Shown here one piece after another: positions 8,904-24,694 of a stretch of 53,808 bases of DNA. The DNA lies in the UHGV virus genome UHGV-0110229; one strand, given 5' to 3'. The stretch is from a virus. The notes under the pieces are model-generated. The model saw only the letters and a program-made list of their open reading frames with translations, ran no database searches and had not been told where the DNA came from. The number at the start of each line of letters is the position of its first letter. The stretch's first letter is position 1. Made by a program: the position numbers and the translations under genes.

Positions 8904-9011
8904 TATGGACTTACCTTGTCTGCAAGTTTACAGAATGGCGTTAACAGGTCAAGGATTGAAAAATACATTTTGTGACTTGCATCAAACTTTTTTAGCTTAT
9001 AGGGTAGCGAC

Positions 9012-9659
9012 ATGAAAACAAAATGGTATGACTTGGCAAAACAACTCATGCGGGCGCAGGGCATGAGTCAGGATTCACTGGCTGATCTCATGGGGATAAC
9101 AAAAGGCGGCTTGTCGCACTGGCTGAACGGTCGCCGTGAGCCAAATCTTGAAGATATTGCGCGGATCATGCGGGCGCTTGGGCGTCGGCAATTCACTGTC
9201 ACACATGATGGGATGGTCATCGATGATTCTGTTTCTAACACGTTACCGGGAGCGCCACCGCGTGATTTAGGCAGTTACCCGGTTGTTGACTGGAAGGACG
9301 CAGTAAACAATATGGAAGATGCAAGGCGATCAACATTACCACACGTTACAACTAGCGTTATTTGTTCTGATGATAGTTATTGGCTGGTAGCTAAAGGCGA
9401 ATCAATGAACGCTCCGCAAGGATTGAGTATACCAGCGGGGACGATGATACTTGTCGATCCGCACGCGCCAGCTATTGACGGCAAACTAGTTATAGCCCAA
9501 CTGGAGGAAGGGCAAACTCCTACGTTTAAACAGCTTGTTATTGATGGAGGTCAAAGGCTTTTACGTTCACTCAATCCGCTGTATCCACCGATCCCTATGA
9601 ATCCAGAATCTAAAATCATAGGTGTGGTAGTGGATGCGAAGATCGTAAACCTGCCATAA
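9012..9659 (+). CDS. cI: CI-type prophage repressor (HTH + S24 LexA-like autopeptidase)
   Basis: 215 aa; N-terminal HTH (QDSLADLMGITKGGLSHWLNG); C-terminal S24 motifs (AKGESM Ser, later Lys). Confidence 0.85.
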   Translation: MKTKWYDLAKQLMRAQGMSQDSLADLMGITKGGLSHWLNGRREPNLEDIARIMRALGRRQFTVTHDGMVIDDSVSNTLPGAPPRDLGSYPVVDWKDAVNNMEDARRSTLPHVTTSVICSDDSYWLVAKGESMNAPQGLSIPAGTMILVDPHAPAIDGKLVIAQLEEGQTPTFKQLVIDGGQRLLRSLNPLYPPIPMNPESKIIGVVVDAKIVNLP

Positions 9660-9664
9660 ACACT

Positions 9665-9689
9665 AGCCGCCGAATGGCGGCTTTTCTTT
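9665..9689 (+). terminator. Rho-independent terminator after cI
   Basis: AGCCGCC-GAAT-GGCGGCT stem-loop followed by TTTTCTTTG. Confidence 0.6.
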
Positions 9690-9781
9690 GCTAAAAAACA
9701 CCAAAACGTAAACAGAAAACCATGTTTATCATTTAAATATCAAGTGCTTATAAAATTTTATAAAAAAGTATACAAAATGTG

Positions 9782-9819
9782 TTGACTCGTGTTTTTACGG
9801 GGCGTATATTTCGAGTCAA
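9782..9819 (+). promoter_or_regulatory. Sigma70 promoter (PL-like) embedded in an operator palindrome
   Basis: TTGACT-17 nt-TATATT; flanked by perfect inverted repeat TTGACTCG (9782-9789) / CGAGTCAA (9812-9819); AT-rich upstream. Confidence 0.6.
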
Positions 9820-9852
9820 AAGGAGGAAGCAAGGCAGGGAAAGAAGGTTACT

Positions 9853-9890
9853 TGCTCTTTAATAATCTGGTCAGCCGCTGGAAGTGCGGC
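9853..9890 (+). promoter_or_regulatory. nutL-like site (boxA + boxB hairpin)
   Basis: TGCTCTTTAATAA matches boxA (rrn-type TGCTCTTTAACAA); then hairpin GCCGC-TGGAAGT-GCGGC; lies between promoter and the N-like gene. Confidence 0.6.
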
Positions 9891-9946
9891 AATTAACGAA
9901 GATGATTTTTTATTAAGTATCATCAAGGATATAAGGAGATCAGATC

Positions 9947-10237
9947 ATGACAGTTACAATCATGTATGGCAAATGTGACAGTAAACTGAATGCCAGGGAA
10001 CGCAGAAGAATAAAAAGAGAAAACGAAAGAAAATCATCACCTGCAATTAATAAAACAGACAATGTGGATAAAGCTATTCGCTTTGCAAACGAGGAAAGAT
10101 GCAAACCAAATAGCATTAAAGAACGTCGCAAAGGAGCAGTAAAATGGTATACGGAAAATGAAAGCGGCAACTACTACCACGCAACGCAACCACGCCATTT
10201 AGGGGAAAAACCACTTGATAAAGTCCGTTACCATTAA
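9947..10237 (+). CDS. N-type transcription antiterminator (P22 gp24-like, N-terminal arginine-rich motif)
   Basis: 96 aa; N-terminus MTVTIMYGKCDSKLNARERRRIKRE resembles P22 N as recalled (MTVITYGKS..NAKTRRHERRRK); AGGAG RBS; first gene after promoter and nut. Confidence 0.7.
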   Translation: MTVTIMYGKCDSKLNARERRRIKRENERKSSPAINKTDNVDKAIRFANEERCKPNSIKERRKGAVKWYTENESGNYYHATQPRHLGEKPLDKVRYH

Positions 10238-10267
10238 TACAAAATGTAAACAGCCGGAGGTGACGTT

Positions 10268-10390
10268 ATGGTTATTCAGGCGCTCCAATTCAAACTGGCG
10301 GTAGCGGAAATGCTTCATGATGCCGAAATGTGGAGCGCCGCGAATAAAGCCTTATATATAGTGTTAACAGCGAAGGAGATTAAAGAGTGA
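10268..10390 (+). CDS. Small ORF upstream of erf (positional analogue of P22 arf)
   Basis: 40 aa, GGAGG RBS, stop overlaps the erf GTG start (GTGA). Confidence 0.3.
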   Translation: MVIQALQFKLAVAEMLHDAEMWSAANKALYIVLTAKEIKE

Positions 10391-11028
10391 AAACAGAGTT
10401 ACACAAAAAACTGTGGACGATTCAGCAAACGCTGAACGCGCCGAAAAATCAGCGTAATAATTTCGGTGGATACAATTACAGGTCGGCGGAGGATATTTTA
10501 GAAGCGGTCAAACCACTGCTTCAAAGTATTACGCTGACTGTAAGCGATGAAATTGTCCTGATCGGCAATCGCTATTATGTGAAAGCCACTGCGACACTAA
10601 GCGACGGTGAGGATGAAATAGCGGTAACGGCTTACGCCAGGGAGGAAGAAAGCAAGAAGGGAATGGACGCAAGCCAGTTAACTGGCGCGACATCAAGTTA
10701 CGCGCGTAAATACGCTTTGAACGGGTTGTTCTGCATTGATGACGCAAAAGATCCTGATACTGATGCTTACGCGAAACAGACAAATCAACAGCCACGCCAG
10801 CAGAAAAACCCACCAAAACAACAACCACAGCAGCAGAAAGCGCCTCCAAATCCTGATGAGGTGTTAGCGCGTTTCTGTGATGCGGCAGCGAAAGCGCAGG
10901 ACGCTAACAAATTGCGCGAGATCTTCTGGAAGTGCTGGAAGCTACTGCCTAAAGATTCAGAGCAGCAACAGAAAGCCAAAGACGTTTATGACATTAGATT
11001 AAAAGAGCTTAACGGGGAGATCAGTTAA
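10387..11028 (+). CDS. erf: Erf-family single-strand annealing recombinase
   Basis: 213 aa, GTG start with AAGGAG RBS; strong resemblance to P22 Erf N-terminal domain as recalled; Q/P-rich linker. Confidence 0.8.
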   Translation: MKTELHKKLWTIQQTLNAPKNQRNNFGGYNYRSAEDILEAVKPLLQSITLTVSDEIVLIGNRYYVKATATLSDGEDEIAVTAYAREEESKKGMDASQLTGATSSYARKYALNGLFCIDDAKDPDTDAYAKQTNQQPRQQKNPPKQQPQQQKAPPNPDEVLARFCDAAAKAQDANKLREIFWKCWKLLPKDSEQQQKAKDVYDIRLKELNGEIS

Positions 11029-11444
11029 TGAGCTTAAATTTAATCACACTTGGCGGTAATATCGGGAATGATATGGAAATTCATTACACGCAAAACGGAA
11101 AGGCGATTGGTAGTTTTCCGTTAGCTGTAACGAATGGCTACGGCGATAATAAGCGGACAATGTGGGTCACTTGCCTGGTATTTGGCGAGCGTGCGGAAAA
11201 ATTAGCGCCACATATCCGCAAGGGTGGGAAAATAGTGGTAAGCGGTCGCCTGGATGTTCGGCAATATGACCGGAACGACGGCACGAAGGGGACGGCGGTA
11301 GAAGTGGCGGTTAACGAATTTGAATTCATGAACGTTAACCAACAAGGCCAGCAGCAAGGCCAGCAGCAGAAAGCGCCACCGCATCAAAATAATAACGTGA
11401 ATAATCCTCCGCCGATGGACTTCGACGATGATATTCCGTTCTGA
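11028..11444 (+). CDS. ssb: Single-stranded DNA-binding protein
   Basis: 138 aa; OB-fold-like N-terminus, Gln-rich linker, acidic C-terminal tail DFDDDIPF. Confidence 0.85.
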   Translation: MSLNLITLGGNIGNDMEIHYTQNGKAIGSFPLAVTNGYGDNKRTMWVTCLVFGERAEKLAPHIRKGGKIVVSGRLDVRQYDRNDGTKGTAVEVAVNEFEFMNVNQQGQQQGQQQKAPPHQNNNVNNPPPMDFDDDIPF

Positions 11445-11459
11445 TTCAATAGGTTAGCG

Positions 11460-11738
11460 ATGGGTGATTATTTAAAACCGCCACCGCCACCGCGAACAAA
11501 AGAGCAAGTTCTAAAAGAAGCCCGTGATCATATCGATCATGGGCTTTTTTTATGCGGAACGGCAGCGGAACGGATGGCAAAAAGATTTAGTGACCTGTAC
11601 GCAAAACAAATATGGTTCGACAACTGGCAGGCAAGTTTTTACCCACTGCAAAGAAAACCGGATATGCATTGGCCTGAATATGTCGATCCACGTATGCGCA
11701 AATATCGCGGGCGTATGGGTCAGGTTATTAACGATTAA
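11460..11738 (+). CDS. Hypothetical early protein
   Basis: 92 aa ORF after ssb; position where P22 carries anti-RecBCD genes, but no sequence evidence. Confidence 0.4.
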   Translation: MGDYLKPPPPPRTKEQVLKEARDHIDHGLFLCGTAAERMAKRFSDLYAKQIWFDNWQASFYPLQRKPDMHWPEYVDPRMRKYRGRMGQVIND

Positions 11739-11752
11739 TGAGGTATTAAATC

Positions 11753-11977
11753 ATGATCGAAGGTAAAGAAGTTGATAGGGAAATGCCTGACACAGCAGAT
11801 GACTACGTTACTTTTGATGGTGGCATGTATGAGTTCGATACGTCGGCTGGTTGGCATGATAAATGGCCTCTGCCTACTCGCAAGGAATTGAATGACCGTA
11901 AATCATTCGGCGAAGATGCCGAACGCCTGGCGAATAACAAATGGCTTGATAAATTCATTGCGGAGGGTGGCAAATGA
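11753..11977 (+). CDS. Hypothetical early protein
   Basis: 74 aa ORF. Confidence 0.4.
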   Translation: MIEGKEVDREMPDTADDYVTFDGGMYEFDTSAGWHDKWPLPTRKELNDRKSFGEDAERLANNKWLDKFIAEGGK

Positions 11978-12081
11978 AAAAGATTGCAATGTTAGCCGCA
12001 TTTGTTGCTGTGGCGGCTGTTTACCTTAGTGCGTCACTTTATATCACTGTGGCGATTGTTAAGCTGATTACTGACATGTGA
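11974..12081 (+). CDS. Small hydrophobic peptide (35 aa, single TM)
   Basis: MKKIAMLAAFVAVAAVYLSASLYITVAIVKLITDM; GGAGGG RBS; ATGA overlap with upstream gene. Confidence 0.35.
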   Translation: MKKIAMLAAFVAVAAVYLSASLYITVAIVKLITDM

Positions 12082-12088
12082 GGCTTAT

Positions 12089-12205
12089 ATGCGAGTCGAT
12101 AAAAATACTGTAAGGGCTGTTTTCTGCGTGGTCGCTTTCGTCTTCATGGTGGTAATAGCTGGCGCTACTGCGGCAATTATTAGCTATATCGGCGGGGTGA
12201 TGTGA
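12089..12205 (+). CDS. Small hydrophobic peptide (38 aa, single TM)
   Basis: MRVDKNTVRAVFCVVAFVFMVVIAGATAAIISYIGGVM; stop overlaps next start (TGATG). Confidence 0.35.
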   Translation: MRVDKNTVRAVFCVVAFVFMVVIAGATAAIISYIGGVM

Positions 12206-12477
12206 TGATTACTTGGAATGCAAAAGATGGCGATCTTGTTGTTTTACCTGAGTATCGTAGTGACCCTGGCCTGGTCGTGCTGAATAAGACATTTAATGAT
12301 CTTGAGCGCCCGATCCTGGTTAAATACCTGGACGGAACAATTATAGAGCCGCGTTTCTTTGACAAGATTGAACTGAAGGCCCGAAATGTTCGCGTTAAGC
12401 CGTTCCGGGCTTATGCTGAAAACCACTGGCGGAAATTATTCGCCGGACTGAATGGGATGTACGGCGTATGGCTATAA
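12205..12477 (+). CDS. Hypothetical early protein
   Basis: ORF (track 12202..12477); ATG at 12205. Confidence 0.35.
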   Translation: MITWNAKDGDLVVLPEYRSDPGLVVLNKTFNDLERPILVKYLDGTIIEPRFFDKIELKARNVRVKPFRAYAENHWRKLFAGLNGMYGVWL

Positions 12478-12659
12478 AATTAGTGAAAGTTAAAGATTTA
12501 AAAGGTGGTGAAAAGATCCGAACGTGGTATGGCTATAAATTTATTATAGCTGCCTTTTCTTTTGGGCCAGGTGGTCAGGTAACATTATTTGATGAGGAAG
12601 ATGACGAGGTTGGTAAATGGCATCTTGAGCAATACGTCGAGGTGTTAAATGAAAATTAA
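12468..12659 (+). CDS. Hypothetical early protein
   Basis: 63 aa ORF, coupled to neighbours. Confidence 0.3.
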   Translation: MAIKLVKVKDLKGGEKIRTWYGYKFIIAAFSFGPGGQVTLFDEEDDEVGKWHLEQYVEVLNEN

Positions 12660-12981
12660 ATTCCATAAAGGCTATGATTCAGCTACTAACAAGCTATCGC
12701 TATTTATTGAGTTCGAGCGCAGGATCGTGGTTGTTCCTTATTCTCGGCGCTTTAATGATGCGGCAGGGCGGAGACAGTTCGCGTTAGACATGTTGTTACG
12801 TGGTTGCGGCCTTATGCGCCCGCTATCTGATTTAAAACGGATAATGCCTGGATCGTTCGGTCAGATTGATGAAATAGAAATAAGCCAGGAAGAGCTAAAA
12901 CGGGAGCGTGATTTATTCCTTTCAAGTGAAGGAAACCCGTTCAATCCAGAAACTGAAATGAAATGGCATCACCCACTATAA
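12649..12981 (+). CDS. Hypothetical early protein
   Basis: 110 aa ORF. Confidence 0.35.
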   Translation: MKIKFHKGYDSATNKLSLFIEFERRIVVVPYSRRFNDAAGRRQFALDMLLRGCGLMRPLSDLKRIMPGSFGQIDEIEISQEELKRERDLFLSSEGNPFNPETEMKWHHPL

Positions 12982-12993
12982 AGGATAAATATC

Positions 12994-13614
12994 ATGAACG
13001 ACATCAAAACAGCTTATTCACTCGGCAGCGAAGGCATGTTAATCACTCGCTACACTGAAGACGCAAGTTTTCATGAAGTTGAAATTAAAGATTATCACGA
13101 AGTATTGAAAGATATGGAAGCTGGCAAGTATGACGCTGATTTGAATCTGGCGTTACAGATTGTTGATATTGTGATGGATGCGTCGATCCGCGATTATGTG
13201 TCTTTAAATGCTGAAGAAAAAACGGCCGTAGCTCGTTATGTCTTCTGCCTTACTTTCGTAAAACGAATGGAAGAAGAATTTGGACGAGTACCAGTGCCGG
13301 AAGAAATTGACCCGCTGGCGTTCGGAAGTGCTGTTATTTTCCCGTTAGATGAAAATCATATGGGTAGCGTTGCGCTGTATTCTATGCGCGGCGTAATGAA
13401 AGAAATATTCGAGGCTAAAGCGTTACAGAAGTGTATTGATGAAGGGCACAAAGAGGAAGACGTAAAGGCGATCATGCCATTGTTTTACGGCGAAATGGTT
13501 GGAAATAATATGCGTGCAAATGATTTAGGTGTACAGGCGGCTATAGCTGTGCTTAATGATGTACGGAAAAACGTGCAGCCAATGCCTGAACCTGAAAAGC
13601 GCGTACTTCATTAA
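12994..13614 (+). CDS. Hypothetical early protein
   Basis: 206 aa ORF, acidic. Confidence 0.45.
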   Translation: MNDIKTAYSLGSEGMLITRYTEDASFHEVEIKDYHEVLKDMEAGKYDADLNLALQIVDIVMDASIRDYVSLNAEEKTAVARYVFCLTFVKRMEEEFGRVPVPEEIDPLAFGSAVIFPLDENHMGSVALYSMRGVMKEIFEAKALQKCIDEGHKEEDVKAIMPLFYGEMVGNNMRANDLGVQAAIAVLNDVRKNVQPMPEPEKRVLH

Positions 13615-13713
13615 CGTTGTGGTTGCGATCGCATAAATATACGTTTTGTGTTGCGATCGCAAATCCGTTTTGTGAACTGAAATCAAAAGGTTTACGGCGC
13701 GGAGGAAAACAAG

Positions 13714-13932
13714 ATGGCCCGCGAATTAATGCTTTATTGTGTTGAGGGTGGAGTAGGTCACGATGCCTACGTCGCCGGGAAAGGCTATCCAGCCGATGAA
13801 GTGCTTTCTAATATGCACTTCCGGGAAAATGAAAGCCGGGTGTCTGTGTGGAAACGGTGCATTGATGGTATTGAAGTTGTAAGTATCGAACGGTATTTAG
13901 GCACATTTGATTACGGTGTTATTGAGGCTTAA
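13714..13932 (+). CDS. Hypothetical protein
   Basis: 72 aa ORF. Confidence 0.35.
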   Translation: MARELMLYCVEGGVGHDAYVAGKGYPADEVLSNMHFRENESRVSVWKRCIDGIEVVSIERYLGTFDYGVIEA

Positions 13933-14030
13933 TTATGGACGACACATTGTTTTATATGTGCTGTTGCTGGGGTTTTATTGCCTTATGCCTGTTTATCAGG
14001 TGGTTTATTGAATACCATATGAGGTGATTT

Positions 14031-14222
14031 ATGAAGTGCGTTGCATACTATAGGCTACCTGATAACGCTAAATTAGCTGGGATCGGTTATGCTGGCTGTT
14101 ATTACTATAACGCGGTCGGTGATATTTACAGAGTTAACATTATTGATGGTGTGCAGCATTTTCGCCTAATGACTTGCACATTAAAAGAGCTAAAACAGGC
14201 GGTAAATATGTATGAAGTTTAA
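14031..14222 (+). CDS. Hypothetical protein
   Basis: 63 aa ORF. Confidence 0.3.
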   Translation: MKCVAYYRLPDNAKLAGIGYAGCYYYNAVGDIYRVNIIDGVQHFRLMTCTLKELKQAVNMYEV

Positions 14223-14415
14223 ACAGTATAAAGAATGGAAGATTCCAGAATCAGCAACAAAGGCAGCGCCCGGAAACTTTTCGGGCGTTTATTTTTATAT
14301 GGAAGGGAAATGGTATTTCGGCAGCAGGCCGGATCACTATTATCAAGAAATATGCAAGCCTCATGTGTGGGATATTAAGGAACGCGTGCAAGGTGGTGTA
14401 ATAGACGAGGTTTAA
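14212..14415 (+). CDS. Hypothetical protein
   Basis: 67 aa ORF. Confidence 0.3.
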   Translation: MKFKQYKEWKIPESATKAAPGNFSGVYFYMEGKWYFGSRPDHYYQEICKPHVWDIKERVQGGVIDEV

Positions 14416-14416
14416 A

Positions 14417-14653
14417 ATGGTTAAGAGCTTTTTTAACTGGTTGGGGGCGTGGCTTTTGGCTACGCTTTTTGTTTTTTTGGTGTTCAGCGGCGGCATCGTC
14501 ATATTTACGCTGGCTGTGATGTTTGTTACATGGTCAGTACCTGAGTTTAATGACTTGGGATCTATTCTTACCATAGCCCGCGCTTTATTGGCTGTTAGCT
14601 CATTTATTGGTTTTTGCTGGACTGTAGCGCCTGATTGGGGTGATGAATGGTGA
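14417..14653 (+). CDS. Small membrane protein (2 predicted TM helices)
   Basis: 78 aa, two hydrophobic stretches. Confidence 0.35.
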   Translation: MVKSFFNWLGAWLLATLFVFLVFSGGIVIFTLAVMFVTWSVPEFNDLGSILTIARALLAVSSFIGFCWTVAPDWGDEW

Positions 14654-14891
14654 TCCTATGGCTTTGTTTAATATGTCAGAGCCGCAATTTAACGCCGTTA
14701 AAGCTGCCGCCCGCGCCGCGCTTTCTGCCTGCAAAGCGGAGGTAGAGAAAAACGGATACAGCGATAAAGCTACGCGGCTGATATTAGAAAAGCATTATCG
14801 CAAAGTCGCCCCGCTAATCAGCATCGAGCGTTTTGTCTGGCTGGTGGGGTATTTAAACAACAGATGGGGAACTGATCAGGATTATTTCTAA
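14640..14891 (+). CDS. Hypothetical protein
   Basis: 83 aa ORF. Confidence 0.35.
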   Translation: MMNGDPMALFNMSEPQFNAVKAAARAALSACKAEVEKNGYSDKATRLILEKHYRKVAPLISIERFVWLVGYLNNRWGTDQDYF

Positions 14892-14900
14892 GGGGGCGTA

Positions 14901-15440
14901 ATGAAGAATGACTACGGCGGAAGCCATACGCCGAAGGAAATTAAAGACCTATGGCAGACGCCAAAACCAGTTTTTAGAGGAATGGATCGCGAGTTCGAAT
15001 TTGTCGCAGATGTGGCGGCAAACAAGGCAAATGCGCTAGTTCCGCGATATATAACCGAAGAAATGGACACATTGCATTATCCGTGGGGAGCGGTGGCAAT
15101 GCCTGGTGAGTATGTATGGCTTAATCCGCCATATTCTAATCCGGGGCCATTCGTTGATAAAGCTGCGCTTGAACACAGCAGAAACCATATCGGATGCGTA
15201 ATGCTGTTGCCCGCTGATATTTCTGTTAACTGGTTTATGAACGGCGTGGGGACGGCAAACGAATGCAGATTAATCACGCGCGGGCGGCTGGCTTTTATAA
15301 ATGCTGCGACTGGTAAGCCAGTGAGCGGAAACAATAAAGGCAGCTTGTTTTTGATCTGGCATCCACGGTGCAGACATGAATGTATTTTTACACACGTAAC
15401 GCGCAAAGATCTATATGCAAGAGGTGCAGATAATGACTAG
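14901..15440 (+). CDS. Phage Dam-type DNA N6-adenine methyltransferase
   Basis: 179 aa; amino-methylase motif NPPYS; size and layout typical of small phage Dam enzymes. Confidence 0.65.
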   Translation: MKNDYGGSHTPKEIKDLWQTPKPVFRGMDREFEFVADVAANKANALVPRYITEEMDTLHYPWGAVAMPGEYVWLNPPYSNPGPFVDKAALEHSRNHIGCVMLLPADISVNWFMNGVGTANECRLITRGRLAFINAATGKPVSGNNKGSLFLIWHPRCRHECIFTHVTRKDLYARGADND

Positions 15441-15930
15441 TGCAGCAGATTTATTACGACTTGCAGCGGAAACAATTGAGCAAAGAGGGAAACAAAACGG
15501 ATACGACAGAAAACAAGAAAAATCAGCGCCAAAAATAGCCACTATATACAACGCTAAGAAGGGCGCAAATTTAACCCCACTTGATGTATGGGATCTGTTG
15601 ATTTGTCTTAAGGAGGCGCGTTTAGAGGCAATTTTGGCTAATGGTTCTGACCCTACTGATACTTTGGTTGACTTAATCAGCTACAGCGCACTAAAAGCGG
15701 AGCAAATATTAAATGATCGGGAGAATGAGCAAAAGAAAAATCAGTTCACTGCCGCCAATATTAATGATGGAATAATAAATGACGCAGCAATAACAAGCTG
15801 TAAGGGGTTGCCACCTTCAATGCTTAATCCTCAATGTGGTTGTATTTCAACTCGGCTTGATTTGAATTTCAAAAGATCTGAGGCTATTCGCGATAAGAGG
15901 TATGACCCAAATGAAAAAGGTGACAATTGA
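15433..15930 (+). CDS. Hypothetical protein adjacent to methyltransferase
   Basis: 165 aa from ATG at 15433 (GAGGTG RBS), overlapping the methylase stop. Confidence 0.4.
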   Translation: MTSAADLLRLAAETIEQRGKQNGYDRKQEKSAPKIATIYNAKKGANLTPLDVWDLLICLKEARLEAILANGSDPTDTLVDLISYSALKAEQILNDRENEQKKNQFTAANINDGIINDAAITSCKGLPPSMLNPQCGCISTRLDLNFKRSEAIRDKRYDPNEKGDN

Positions 15931-16414
15931 CAGGTTATTGGCCTGCGTTTACGTCGCCGTTTTCGTGATCATCAACCTTATTGTTAACCATTGCGGTCCG
16001 TGGGTAATTCCTATCACCACGGTAGCCGTAGTGTGTGTCAATATGATGATCCGCGACTTTCTGTTATATGACGGCGGCCTGAAATGGTCGGCTACAACAT
16101 GCGCCGCCGCTGGCGCAATCACGGTGCTGATAAATTATGACGCAGGGATGGTGGCAATCGCGTCATTCGTCGCGGTTGTTTCTGGTGCGCTTATATCTGG
16201 CGGCGTTTACCGGGTTTTACCTGGTGATTTCGATTCGAAACGCTGGCCTGCAAATATAGCGTCAGCCATTGGCGATGCGTTGATTTTCCCTACGTTATCG
16301 TTTATGGCATTCATGCCGGAAATATCAGCAATGCAATTCATCTCAAAAATGGCAGCGGTAACGGTGATCACTATCATCATGCGCCGCTATTTCACGTTTG
16401 AGGGCAAAAAATGA
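15902..16414 (+). CDS. Integral membrane protein (4-5 predicted TM helices), function unknown
   Basis: 170 aa, strongly hydrophobic throughout; lies between two methyltransferase-like genes. Confidence 0.45.
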   Translation: MTQMKKVTIDRLLACVYVAVFVIINLIVNHCGPWVIPITTVAVVCVNMMIRDFLLYDGGLKWSATTCAAAGAITVLINYDAGMVAIASFVAVVSGALISGGVYRVLPGDFDSKRWPANIASAIGDALIFPTLSFMAFMPEISAMQFISKMAAVTVITIIMRRYFTFEGKK

Positions 16415-17193
16415 GCAAGGGTAAACACTGGTTAAATAATTGGCTTAGAAGTTGGGTTGTGTGGTCGCTGTACGACGGCAGCGGGTACGCCGTTAAAGAT
16501 TGGGCGGAAGCAGGATATAAGTGCTATTGCTTCAACTATGACGGCGCAAATCACGGCGATTATGAAGGCGTTAAAATCATTCATCCGAATATTGAATACG
16601 TTAACGTGTGGATTGACAGCCATTTCCTGGTAATGTTCTCCCCTGAATTGTCTGTTTATCCAGAGCCTGACATTATCTTGGGTTTTCCTCCATGCGACGA
16701 TCTCGCCGTGTCTGGCGCTCGCTGGTTCGCTGATAAACGGAAAAAAGATCCTGACTTCCAGGTGAAGGCGGCGAATAGCGCAAAACTGGTAGAAAAACTG
16801 GCGGATATGCACAACGTTCCGTGGATGGTGGAAAATCCGGTGGGAGCACTGTCAACGCTATGGCGCAAACCTGATTTTATCTTCAACCCGTGCGCTTACG
16901 GTGGCTACCTGCCTGAAGATGACAAACATCCTGCTTTCCCTGATGTTTACCCGCCGCGAGACGCGTACACGAAGAAAACTTGTATTTGGTGCGGCAACGG
17001 ATTTAAACAGCCGCTTTTTAGACCTGTAGATCTTAACTCTGGTGATAACCCTGGGTGGGCGAAAACCGGAGGAAGGACGAAACGAACAAAGATGATCCGC
17101 TCACTAACGCCGCGTGGCTTTGCCCGTGCTGTATTCCTGGCTAACGACCTGGCCATCAATCGTGCTACGCTCAACCGCGTTTTACCGGACTGA
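16411..17193 (+). CDS. DNA C5-cytosine methyltransferase-like protein with atypical PPCD motif
   Basis: 260 aa; motif I-like LYDGSG, motif IV-like GFPPCDD (Cys kept, Q replaced), motif VI-like VENPVG; short variable region. Confidence 0.45.
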   Translation: MSKGKHWLNNWLRSWVVWSLYDGSGYAVKDWAEAGYKCYCFNYDGANHGDYEGVKIIHPNIEYVNVWIDSHFLVMFSPELSVYPEPDIILGFPPCDDLAVSGARWFADKRKKDPDFQVKAANSAKLVEKLADMHNVPWMVENPVGALSTLWRKPDFIFNPCAYGGYLPEDDKHPAFPDVYPPRDAYTKKTCIWCGNGFKQPLFRPVDLNSGDNPGWAKTGGRTKRTKMIRSLTPRGFARAVFLANDLAINRATLNRVLPD

Positions 17194-17290
17194 AATTTAC
17201 AAAATGGCGTCATTGCGTGATGTGGATCACATAATGGCGCTTTTTACCTTGTTCTGACGTATCCATTTTGTATACTTCAAACAAGCAAAA

Positions 17291-17325
17291 TGCTCTTTAA
17301 AAATCCGGCAGCGCTGAAATGCGTA
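17291..17325 (+). promoter_or_regulatory. Internal nut-like site (boxA + weak hairpin) upstream of the ninF/ninG-like genes
   Basis: TGCTCTTTAAAAATCCGG then CGC-TGAAAT-GCG; the 17-mer GCTCTTTAAAAATCCGG is identical to the leftward nut-like site. Confidence 0.4.
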
Positions 17326-17352
17326 GAAATCACCTGAAAAGGAGAGAGCATT

Positions 17353-17529
17353 ATGCCTTTTGATAATTACCAATGGCATGACGACTATGAACGAGAAAGC
17401 GTCATGCGTGCAATGTGCAATGTATGCAGCACGAAGAAAGGAGACTGCAACGAGTGCAACGAATGTTTAGATCATTGGCTAAAGGCCGGACACGCCGAAA
17501 GGCTGAACGAAACAGAGAATCAAAAATAA
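17353..17529 (+). CDS. Small Cys-rich protein (NinF-position)
   Basis: 58 aa MPFDNYQWHDDYERESVMRAMCNVCSTKKGDCNECNECLDHW..; strong RBS GGAGAGAGCA; just upstream of ninG. Confidence 0.35.
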   Translation: MPFDNYQWHDDYERESVMRAMCNVCSTKKGDCNECNECLDHWLKAGHAERLNETENQK

Positions 17530-24202: not shown

Positions 24203-24694
24203 ATGATTAGCCAATCGCTGAAAAACAAGATTGTTGCGGCGGCGGCTGGTGGGGCGATCGCTATTGCGGCGGTGATGATTAAGCCATTAGAGGGAGTTGA
24301 TTACAATCCTTATCGTGATGTTGTTGGTGTATGGACTGTTTGCCACGGTCATACGGGAAAAGACATCATGCTTGGCAAGACTTACACGCAATCAGAATGC
24401 GATGCTTTGTTAAATAAAGATCTACACAAGACCGCAAAAGCGATCGATCCATATATTAAAGTCGAAATATCAGATTTTACCCGCGCAGCACTTTATTCAT
24501 TCGCCTATAACGTAGGCGCTACCAATTTCAAAACATCAACCTTATTGAAGCTACTCAATGACGGCAAGAAATCAGAAGCGTGCGCACAGCTTAAACGCTG
24601 GGTATACGCTGGCGGTAAGAAGTGGCAAGGCCTGGTTAACCGCCGCGAGGTTGAATATGCCGTTTGCGAATGGGGTGAAACATGGACAAGGTGA
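24203..24694 (+). CDS. SAR endolysin (T4-lysozyme-type muramidase with N-terminal signal-arrest-release domain)
   Basis: Gly/Ala-rich weakly hydrophobic N-terminus ([17 protein letters not shown]) then E-8aa-D-5aa-T catalytic triad ([16 protein letters not shown]). Confidence 0.85.

Follow-up and report, generated by a model that had tools for sequence, protein, structure and literature searches.

The virus genome UHGV-0110229, a 53,808-nucleotide (nt) stretch of DNA referred to here as the window, carries a tightly packed block of 14 plus-strand open reading frames (ORFs) between the genes for SSB and a Dam-like methyltransferase (positions 11460-14891). These ORFs were designated o1 to o14. 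Comparison with related phages made it highly probable that the block corresponds to gp21-gp29 of phage mEp021 and that its 14 genes are a constant part of the long rightward early operon of a temperate phage of the mEpimmI type, with products and expression as proposed below. The block is a new haplotype of a gene block that has already been described. It is mildly new, and only in its conserved, usually unannotated mini-membrane proteins and in the reach of the family of its last product, Ipe. The coordinates of the features discussed are collected in Table 1.

The 14 ORFs cover 96% of the interval 11460-14891. Neighbouring ORFs overlap by 4, 1 (TGATG, using ATG 12205), 10, 11, 11 and 14 nt, and the remaining junctions are gaps of 1-15 nt, with the sole exception of a 99-nt gap (13615-13713) that precedes o9. 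Shine-Dalgarno sequences of the GAGG or GGAGG type lie 5-10 nt upstream of most starts. Selection was assessed in an alignment of the window interval with 14 relatives (15 genomes). The Nei-Gojobori (NG86) omega values of all 14 ORFs fell between 0.08 and 0.39 in their own frames, compared to 0.7-3.6 in the two other frames, and every ORF had an excess of variable sites at third codon positions. Presence, defined as a match over more than 80% of ORF length, was scored over 60 related loci, 46 of which had been added by a scan of IMG/VR with Ipe. Each ORF was carried at this length by 58-60 of the 60 loci, except for o11, which passed in 30 loci and matched over less of its length in the other 30. 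Because of the junctions, the purifying selection and the presence across loci, all 14 ORFs, the tiny ones included, are real genes. The original prediction of about 14 small, translationally coupled ORFs between ssb and the Dam-like gene was borne out by these results. Its statement that they belong to no recognisable family was not, since o1 falls in PHROG 656, o12 in DUF7274 and o14 in the Ipe family (PHROG 303), and o2 is weakly DUF2737-like; a PHROG family was found for every ORF of at least 63 aa.

The 3.4-kb block was 85-87% identical in DNA sequence to mEp010, mEp044, mEp013, mEp554, mEp021, mEp515 and MagusPhagus. Of 5426 complete E. coli genomes, 35 carried related prophages, with identities to the block of up to 92%. 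Since the first 25 kb of the window are collinear from base 1 with the whole genomes of mEp010, mEp044 and mEp013, the window probably represents an entire phage of the mEpimmI type. The mEpimmI group, of which mEp021 is the prototype, was described as Nus-dependent and non-lambdoid (Frontiers in Microbiology 2025, PMC11893012), and the lambdoid setting that had been proposed for the region does not hold. In annotated relatives the gene order is repressor, N-like antiterminator gp17, Kil-like 40-aa ORF, Erf, SSB, the block, Dam-type methyltransferase, DUF6378, membrane protein and Dcm, and the layout of the window matches this order. A kil-type function, which had been expected among the 14 ORFs, may sit upstream of them in the 40-aa ORF that follows the N-like gene and precedes erf. 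This ORF scored below threshold against the lambda Kil family of Pfam (21.1 bits against a cut-off of 27.6, E = 2.2e-4) and matched the Kil family PHROG 2055 with E = 0.0015; the ORF at this place is named Kil-like in PMC11893012 as well.

The left boundary of the block varied among relatives. Three phages, mEp021, mEp515 and mEp554, have in front of o1 a gene that is unlike the SSB gene of the window: the mEp021 gene was 58% identical to window SSB, the short flanks available for mEp554 and mEp515 gave no SSB match, and the mEp554 gene at the SSB position is annotated as endonuclease VII. The similarity of the window to these three phages begins only about 10 bases inside o1, and a recombination breakpoint therefore lies at the SSB/o1 boundary.

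On sequence grounds, the first gene of the block, o1, encodes a divergent Abc2, a member of the anti-RecBCD family of phage P22. The o1 product matched PHROG 656 ('abc2 anti-RecBCD') over residues 3-92 (E = 1.5e-31). By BLASTP it shared 37% identity over 81 aa with Abc2 of phage JEP4 (E = 1e-15). In the C-terminal 37 aa it shared 43% identity with Abc2 of HK620, which in turn differs little from the P22 Abc2 chain of PDB entry 8b1t (E = 6e-55). In a five-sequence alignment P62 of o1 aligned with P68 of P22 Abc2, and this proline was invariant, as was a C-terminal E..DPR.R.Y..R motif in the joint alignment of o1 and Abc2. In the RecBCD-Abc2-PpiB structure, P68 of P22 Abc2 enters the active site of the host PpiB, and the mechanism of P22 Abc2 consists of binding to RecC and redirection of RecBCD (PMC9836394). 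The association of annealase, SSB and Abc2 is present in the window, where o1 follows Erf and SSB without an adjacent phage exonuclease. The order annealase, SSB, abc2 is also found in JEP4 and in HK620, and in the latter a DUF2737 gene comes next. The presence of an anti-RecBCD-type gene in the region, as the original prediction had supposed, was thus supported by homology.

The second product, o2, fell below threshold against the Pfam family DUF2737 (PF10930; 14.6 bits against a cut-off of 25, E = 0.031) and matched PHROG 4684 with E = 1.9e-4. By BLASTP it matched HK620 hkaI (E = 6e-5), and both genes lie directly after abc2. One o2 homologue is labelled DUF2737 by the Prokaryotic Genome Annotation Pipeline (PGAP). 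These matches suggest that o2 is remotely related to DUF2737.

By sequence, the last gene of the block, o14, is the ortholog of mEp021 gp29, named Ipe for 'inducer of pleiotropic effects'. The window protein is identical to mEp021 Ipe at 75 of 77 positions (97%), and the gene has the same place before dam. Four in-frame starts give forms of 83, 82, 77 and 72 aa, the architecture that PMC6379469 gives for mEp021 ORF-4. When the 77-aa form of mEp021 was overexpressed, haemolysis via HlyE-containing vesicles, altered morphology and cell death were reported, according to the summaries in PMC11893012 and PMC6379469. A toxic gene had been anticipated in the region, and homology to a protein that is toxic on overexpression bears this out.

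The Ipe protein is small, basic and helical. Full-length homologues with 31-49% identity were found by tblastn in 427 phage records outside the mEpimmI group, mostly virulent T1-like Drexlerviridae of Escherichia, Klebsiella, Salmonella and Citrobacter; a word-index homologue search with Ipe returned close relatives only. In the three T1-like phages that were inspected, the homologue lies in each case among small early ORFs upstream of the terminase gene, and the N-terminus of the T1-like homologue aligns near the 77-aa start of Ipe. Since these homologues occupy early regions of virulent phages, Ipe is more likely to be a host-takeover type protein of a general kind, as judged from these comparisons, than virulence cargo or a lysogenic-conversion gene.

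Early expression of the block is plausible by analogy with mEp021, as it lies downstream of a promoter-like site, a nut-like site and an N-like gp17. The sequence TGCTCTTTAA at 9853-9862, which we take to be an rrn-type boxA, is followed by a boxB-like hairpin, and the two together (9853-9890) are probably the nutR1 site of the group. Published work on mEp021 places nutR1 before gp17 and describes antitermination by Gp17 in the group. Within the block, the terminator-like hairpin inside o12 had a folding energy of -15.8 kcal/mol (z = -3.3) and carries a terminator annotation in mEp021, mEp010, mEp013, mEp554 and mEp515. Its central pair, 14271/14283, joins two synonymous positions, the third bases of the codons for Pro20 and Ser24. 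Among 23 haplotypes this pair was C-G in 9, A-U in 8, a wobble pair in 3 and broken in 3. The covariation score of the hairpin was 0.100, compared to 0.045 +/- 0.013 after shuffling, and none of 500 shuffles scored as high, in a set of sequences that are related to each other. We take the o12 hairpin to be a real terminator, which would be read through by the N-like system, as published work on mEp021 suggests. At the covarying synonymous positions the coding sequence of o12 is constrained by an RNA signal. Another terminator, TERM_2, is annotated over the o3 sequence in the GenBank record of mEp021, with no coding sequence there; the corresponding hairpin in the window is weak (5 pairs, poor T-tract).

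The 99-nt gap before o9 was conserved to the same degree as coding DNA and contains a two-hairpin element. Hairpin 1 has a GATC in each arm, and the 3' arm of hairpin 2 covers part of the o9 Shine-Dalgarno sequence. The gap folded with a minimum free energy of -33.3 kcal/mol (z = -2.8), and in the consensus fold pairing was kept in 98% of cells, with changes that were nearly all wobble-preserving; the covariation shuffle control for these hairpins was not significant. A conserved RNA structure in the gap is offered as a suggestion. The GATC sites are not universal, being absent from 4-7 of 34 haplotypes, and therefore no claim of Dam regulation is made for the gap. A promoter or operator was considered for the gap and rejected, as no sigma-70-like site scored there, and a nut site was rejected as well, the published nut sites of the group being located elsewhere. 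In two IMG/VR loci (L057 and L058) an insertion of about 195 nt is present at window position ~13706, directly after hairpin 2 and before o9. It encodes an extra 60-aa single-transmembrane (TM) protein, MTNFERNHKSKLNPHFIIERTLGGLFAILVPAAAVMLVYMIIDLIIKAFNNGICMYAVCY, with no Pfam match.

Four of the products, o3, o4, o10 and o13, are predicted to be very small inner-membrane proteins. The first two had been singled out earlier as adjacent single-TM peptides of 35 and 38 aa, and they proved to be real genes, each with one hydrophobic segment; o10 and o13 had been overlooked. Hydrophobicity was measured as the Kyte-Doolittle maximum over 19 residues (KD19). A six-frame count over the window gave 236 ORFs of 30-45 aa, of which only 6 reached the o3 value of 2.26 or more. 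Two other strongly hydrophobic mini-ORFs that appeared in this count lie on the plus strand at 24297 (38 aa) and 26602 (31 aa). In 48 distinct haplotypes, o3 and o4 were intact in 46-48, despite 24 protein variants of o3 and 29 of o4, and the C-terminal sequence YLSxSLYITVAIxKLI of o3 was conserved. The o3 gene was present in 58 of the 60 loci, and its product had no family match in profile searches. Both peptides have two net positive charges at the N-terminus and helices rich in small residues. The window-type alleles of o3 and o4 were always found together, with 10 haplotypes carrying both and 38 neither (linkage 10:0:0:38). A tblastn search of phages with o3 and o4 gave no match or one near-identical match; the low-complexity filter masks hydrophobic queries of this kind, and absence elsewhere is not implied.

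The o10 protein was identical to that of the window in half of the haplotypes (24 of 48), and its exact sequence occurs on at least 429 public contigs. For o13, a weak match to PHROG 14059 was the only one found, and the gene is frameshifted in MagusPhagus. The RefSeq label of o13 homologues, 'cell division protein FtsK', has no support; the protein has only 78 aa and two TM segments, instead of the translocase or N-terminal 4-TM domain of FtsK, with no Pfam or NCBIfam match. In all seven RefSeq prophages inspected, PGAP left o3 and o10 unannotated, and o4 was annotated in one of the seven. Eight products of the block were looked up in public databases, o3, o4 and o10 among them, and exact copies of each are held there as hypothetical proteins.

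We propose that transcription would start at the promoter-like site at 9782-9810 and pass the nut-like site at 9853-9890, after which the N-like Gp17 would render it resistant to terminators. The antiterminated transcript would then pass the o12 hairpin and reach o13, Ipe and the methyltransferase genes. Translation would be chained through overlapping or abutting stop and start signals, except at o9, which would use its own Shine-Dalgarno sequence, partly buried in the conserved hairpin. Judging from its homology, o1 would most likely act with Erf and SSB to redirect the host RecBCD to phage recombination through RecC, like P22 Abc2. The o2 product would be the DUF2737-type partner that follows abc2 in P22-like phages, and Ipe would act on a host target. 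With low confidence, we further suppose that o3 and o4, inherited as a matched pair, insert into the inner membrane with their N-termini inside and, during lytic growth, act together on a target in the host membrane.

Several observations weigh against parts of this proposal. A single-sequence phmmer search of PDB with o1 missed 8b1t at E values up to 1, and the N-terminal two thirds of o1, which correspond to the RecC-contacting helices of P22 Abc2, are only weakly similar; binding of o1 to E. coli RecC is a candidate function. The phenotype of Ipe derives from overexpression of the mEp021 protein, and toxicity of the window protein is putative. Early timing and antitermination are carried over from mEp021 and may apply here by analogy. 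The evidence for joint action of o3 and o4 consists of adjacency, coupling and linked alleles, and the linkage may simply reflect physical proximity between recombination breakpoints. The AlphaFold2 models of o5 (pLDDT, the predicted local distance difference test score, 50.8; 18 sequences, 69-94% identity) and o8 (pLDDT 44.9; 17-sequence alignment, 93-99% identity) were too low in confidence for fold comparison.

The o3/o4 pair admits other readings. It is possible, albeit unlikely, that both are Kil-type or type-I-toxin-like membrane poisons that depolarise or permeabilise the inner membrane. Peptides of the Hok, TisB and Ldr type are of similar size, with a single TM segment and N-terminal positive charges, and o3 and o4 resemble them in each of these features and are located in an early operon. 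However, neither peptide has sequence similarity to any family, and the pair is coupled within a polycistron, for which no antisense RNA or separate promoter was found: no antisense promoter-like site and no Rfam match were detected over 11974-12205, and a search of Rfam at E values up to 1 over 9000-17500 returned only two sub-threshold chance matches. A specific partner, rather than generic damage, is indicated by the matched alleles and by the conservation of the o3 C-terminal motif.

It is rather improbable that o3/o4, o10 and o13 are exclusion or anti-defence factors, which would block the entry of competitor DNA or neutralise a membrane-bound abortive-infection effector and whose alleles would have arisen in an arms race. 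Divergence in o3/o4, o11 and o13, while flanking genes remain 85-100% identical, is consistent with such a role, and the extra 60-aa TM gene in two relatives suggests turnover of small membrane proteins in the block. However, TM segments tolerate substitution, and the divergence may reflect relaxed constraint, with omega still below 0.4. Exclusion by a prophage is unlikely if the operon is repressed in lysogens, and no match to these proteins was found in PADLOC or other families. More generally, the anti-restriction or other anti-defence genes that had been expected in the region were not recovered as known families: searches of PADLOC, NCBIfam, Pfam and PDB gave no known anti-defence or defence family. 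None of the 10 ORFs searched matched in NCBIfam or PADLOC, and a PDB sequence search gave nothing meaningful for o1, o5, o8 and Ipe.

A more speculative combination of these ideas, to which we give little credence, would make o3 and o4 a matched pair of peptides that work as one inner-membrane module, perhaps together with o10 and o13. Such a module would be an early phage effector of a kind not recognised before, directed at membrane machinery of the host or at a defence effector bound to the membrane. The two allele pairs, sharply different yet perfectly linked, and the turnover of small TM proteins would then be traces of an arms race, and, separately, the Ipe family would be a general host-takeover factor whose target would explain the haemolysis and cell death.

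The gene set of the block is constant and its sequences are divergent. Across loci, o1, o7, o12, Ipe and dam had protein identities of 82-100%, except in two loci where dam matched only over part of its length. Divergence was concentrated mainly in o3/o4, o6, o11 and o13, with identity ranges of 46-100% for o3, 42-97% for o4, 61-100% for o6, 40-87% for o11 and 28-100% for o13. The region had been called accessory; in the sense of variable content this did not hold, as each complete relative has the same 14 genes. It is accordingly very improbable that the block is a moron region with cargo that varies between phages, comparable to the b region of lambda or to the ea genes of P22. Many small ORFs without known function lie downstream of recombination genes, as in lambdoid phages, and PMC11893012 places most flexible genes of the group in the regulation cluster. 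However, the order of the 14 genes is the same in every complete locus, o11 is found in 60 of 60 loci when partial matches are counted, and the sole change in content is the 195-nt insertion in two loci.

The notion that o3, o4 and o10 are non-genes, either chance hydrophobic ORFs or by-products of regulatory DNA such as TERM_2 inside o3, draws on the mEp021 terminator annotation, the omission of o3 and o10 by PGAP and the chance occurrence of hydrophobic mini-ORFs, and is scarcely credible given in-frame omega values of 0.16, 0.36 and 0.21 against about 0.7-1.6 off-frame, the third-position excess, ORFs that stay intact in 46-48 of 48 haplotypes with their motifs kept through 24-29 protein variants, a GAGG or GGAGGG Shine-Dalgarno sequence with a coupled start for each gene, and the weakness of the o3 hairpin in the window.

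Table 1. Features of the block and its surroundings in UHGV-0110229. KD19, Kyte-Doolittle 19-residue maximum; omega values are in-frame unless stated.
Feature	Coordinates	Strand	Description	Remarks
Promoter-like site	9782-9810		TTGACT-17-TATATT	
boxA	9853-9862		presumably rrn-type, TGCTCTTTAA	
5-bp hairpin	9874-9890		boxB-like	
Kil-like ORF	10268-10390		40 aa	between N-like gene and erf, upstream of block
Erf	10387-11028			
SSB	11028-11444			
o1	11460-11738	+	92 aa, divergent Abc2-like	PHROG 656; omega 0.14
o2	11753-11977	+	74 aa, acidic, DUF2737-like	omega 0.19
o3	11974-12081	+	35 aa, single-TM	start overlaps o2 stop (ATGA); KD19 2.26; omega 0.16 (1.2-1.6 off-frame)
o4	12089-12205	+	38 aa, single-TM	stop overlaps o5 ATG (TGATG); KD19 2.76; omega 0.36
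o5	12205-12477	+	90 aa, group-restricted	ORF opens at GTG 12202; PHROG 28396 only
o6	12468-12659	+	63 aa, acidic, several allele classes	PHROG 34199; omega 0.17
o7	12649-12981	+	110 aa, highly conserved	PHROG 34371; omega 0.11; 88-99% identity across loci
o8	12994-13614	+	206 aa, acidic (isoelectric point 4.7)	PHROG 1515, E = 4e-56
Conserved non-coding element	13626-13703	+	two hairpins	within gap 13615-13713; hairpin 1 13626-13659, hairpin 2 13664-13703
o9	13714-13932	+	72 aa, acidic	PHROG 28996; omega 0.12
o10	13935-14027	+	30 aa, Cys-rich single-TM, nearly invariant	KD19 1.88; omega 0.21
o11	14031-14222	+	63 aa, most variable gene of block	PHROG 37004, E = 1.4e-11; omega 0.30
o12	14212-14415	+	67 aa, DUF7274	Pfam PF23939; omega 0.16
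Terminator-like hairpin	14265-14299	+	11 pairs and T-tract, inside o12	scan match; TERM_3 of mEp021
o13	14417-14653	+	78 aa, two TM	KD segments 19-37 and 49-67; omega 0.39; several very divergent alleles
o14	14658-14891	+	77 aa, Ipe by sequence	ORF opens at GTG 14640; omega 0.08; PHROG 303, E = 6e-25
Dam-like methyltransferase	14901-15440			

The remaining products, o5-o9 and o11-o12, appear to be group-restricted proteins. A concatenated tblastn search with o2, o6-o9 and o11-o13, and a separate one with o5, matched only mEpimmI phages among 50,697 phage records. For o5, 46 homologues were found, 41 of them near full length with at least 67% identity and 4 of them short fragments, and none carried a Pfam domain. 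The RefSeq label 'toxin-antitoxin system toxin subunit' for o5 has no support, as NCBIfam, Pfam, PADLOC and PDB gave no match and the homologues are without a Pfam domain. An exhaustive search with o8 against 1.84 billion representative proteins returned one match outside its immediate family at E values up to 1e-10 (P0170, 29% identity), one weaker match (P0171, E = 1.2e-4) and otherwise fragments; o8 had no match in PDB. The o12 product passed the Pfam threshold for DUF7274 (32.9 bits against a cut-off of 24.5, E = 5.9e-8).

An early region that was supposedly unrecognisable could therefore largely be placed, as a putative RecBCD-hijacking module (Erf, SSB and the Abc2-like o1), a putatively toxic Ipe and small genes that are specific to the group and constant within it. 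PGAP routinely misses three conserved peptides, 30-38 aa long and under purifying selection, in prophages that 35 of the 5426 complete E. coli genomes carry (about 0.6%). As candidates for screens of small proteins or of anti-defence functions, these peptides, o3, o4 and o10, are cheap and well defined. The link of Ipe to an uncharacterised family of T1-like phages broadens the relevance of mechanistic work on Ipe.

Abc2 of P22 (PDB entries 8b1t and 8b1u) and its homologues in HK620, Sf6 and JEP4 share with o1 a length of about 92-98 aa, a place directly after the annealase and SSB genes and a DUF2737-type gene that comes next. They and o1 also have in common the C-terminal E..DPR.R.Y..R..G...N motif, the proline aligned with P68 and membership of PHROG 656, whereas identity to o1 is only 26-36%, and o1 begins differently, with a run of prolines (PPPPP) in its N-terminus and no 'CSGNS' segment. 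The recombinase partner is Erf in the window, as in P22, and Sak4 in HK620. The PHROG 303 proteins of T1-like Drexlerviridae resemble Ipe in their length of 75-77 aa, in the pattern F..E..N..K...K...D...H...F.WL.GY...R.G and in a location among small early ORFs; those phages are virulent and have the gene upstream of terminase, whereas Ipe lies next to the Dam gene. The type I toxins Hok, TisB and Ldr and regulators of the AcrZ/MgrB type resemble o3 and o4 in a length of 30-40 aa, one TM helix and a short charged N-terminus. No sequence relation connects these peptides with o3 and o4, for which no antisense RNA was found and which have no locus of their own; within the phage operon the two form a coupled tandem whose members co-vary.

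At the level of the whole region, the lambda PL operon and the P22 ea-gene regions resemble the block and its surroundings in that an early operon, presumably under N-type antitermination here too, holds kil-like and recombination genes, numerous small ORFs and internal terminators. Those regions are mosaic, whereas the content of the present block is fixed across a group classed as non-lambdoid, and 10 of its 14 ORFs either had no tblastn match outside mEpimmI (o2, o5-o9, o11-o13) or were unsearchable through low-complexity masking (o3). The mEp021 block gp21-gp29 has the same 14 ORFs in identical order, at 85-87% nucleotide identity and with matching flanks, while in its GenBank record o3, o4, o6, o10 and o12 are without gene annotation. 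The o3/o4 allele pair of the window is the rarer type, common to MagusPhagus and some prophages, and differs from the haplotype of mEp021.

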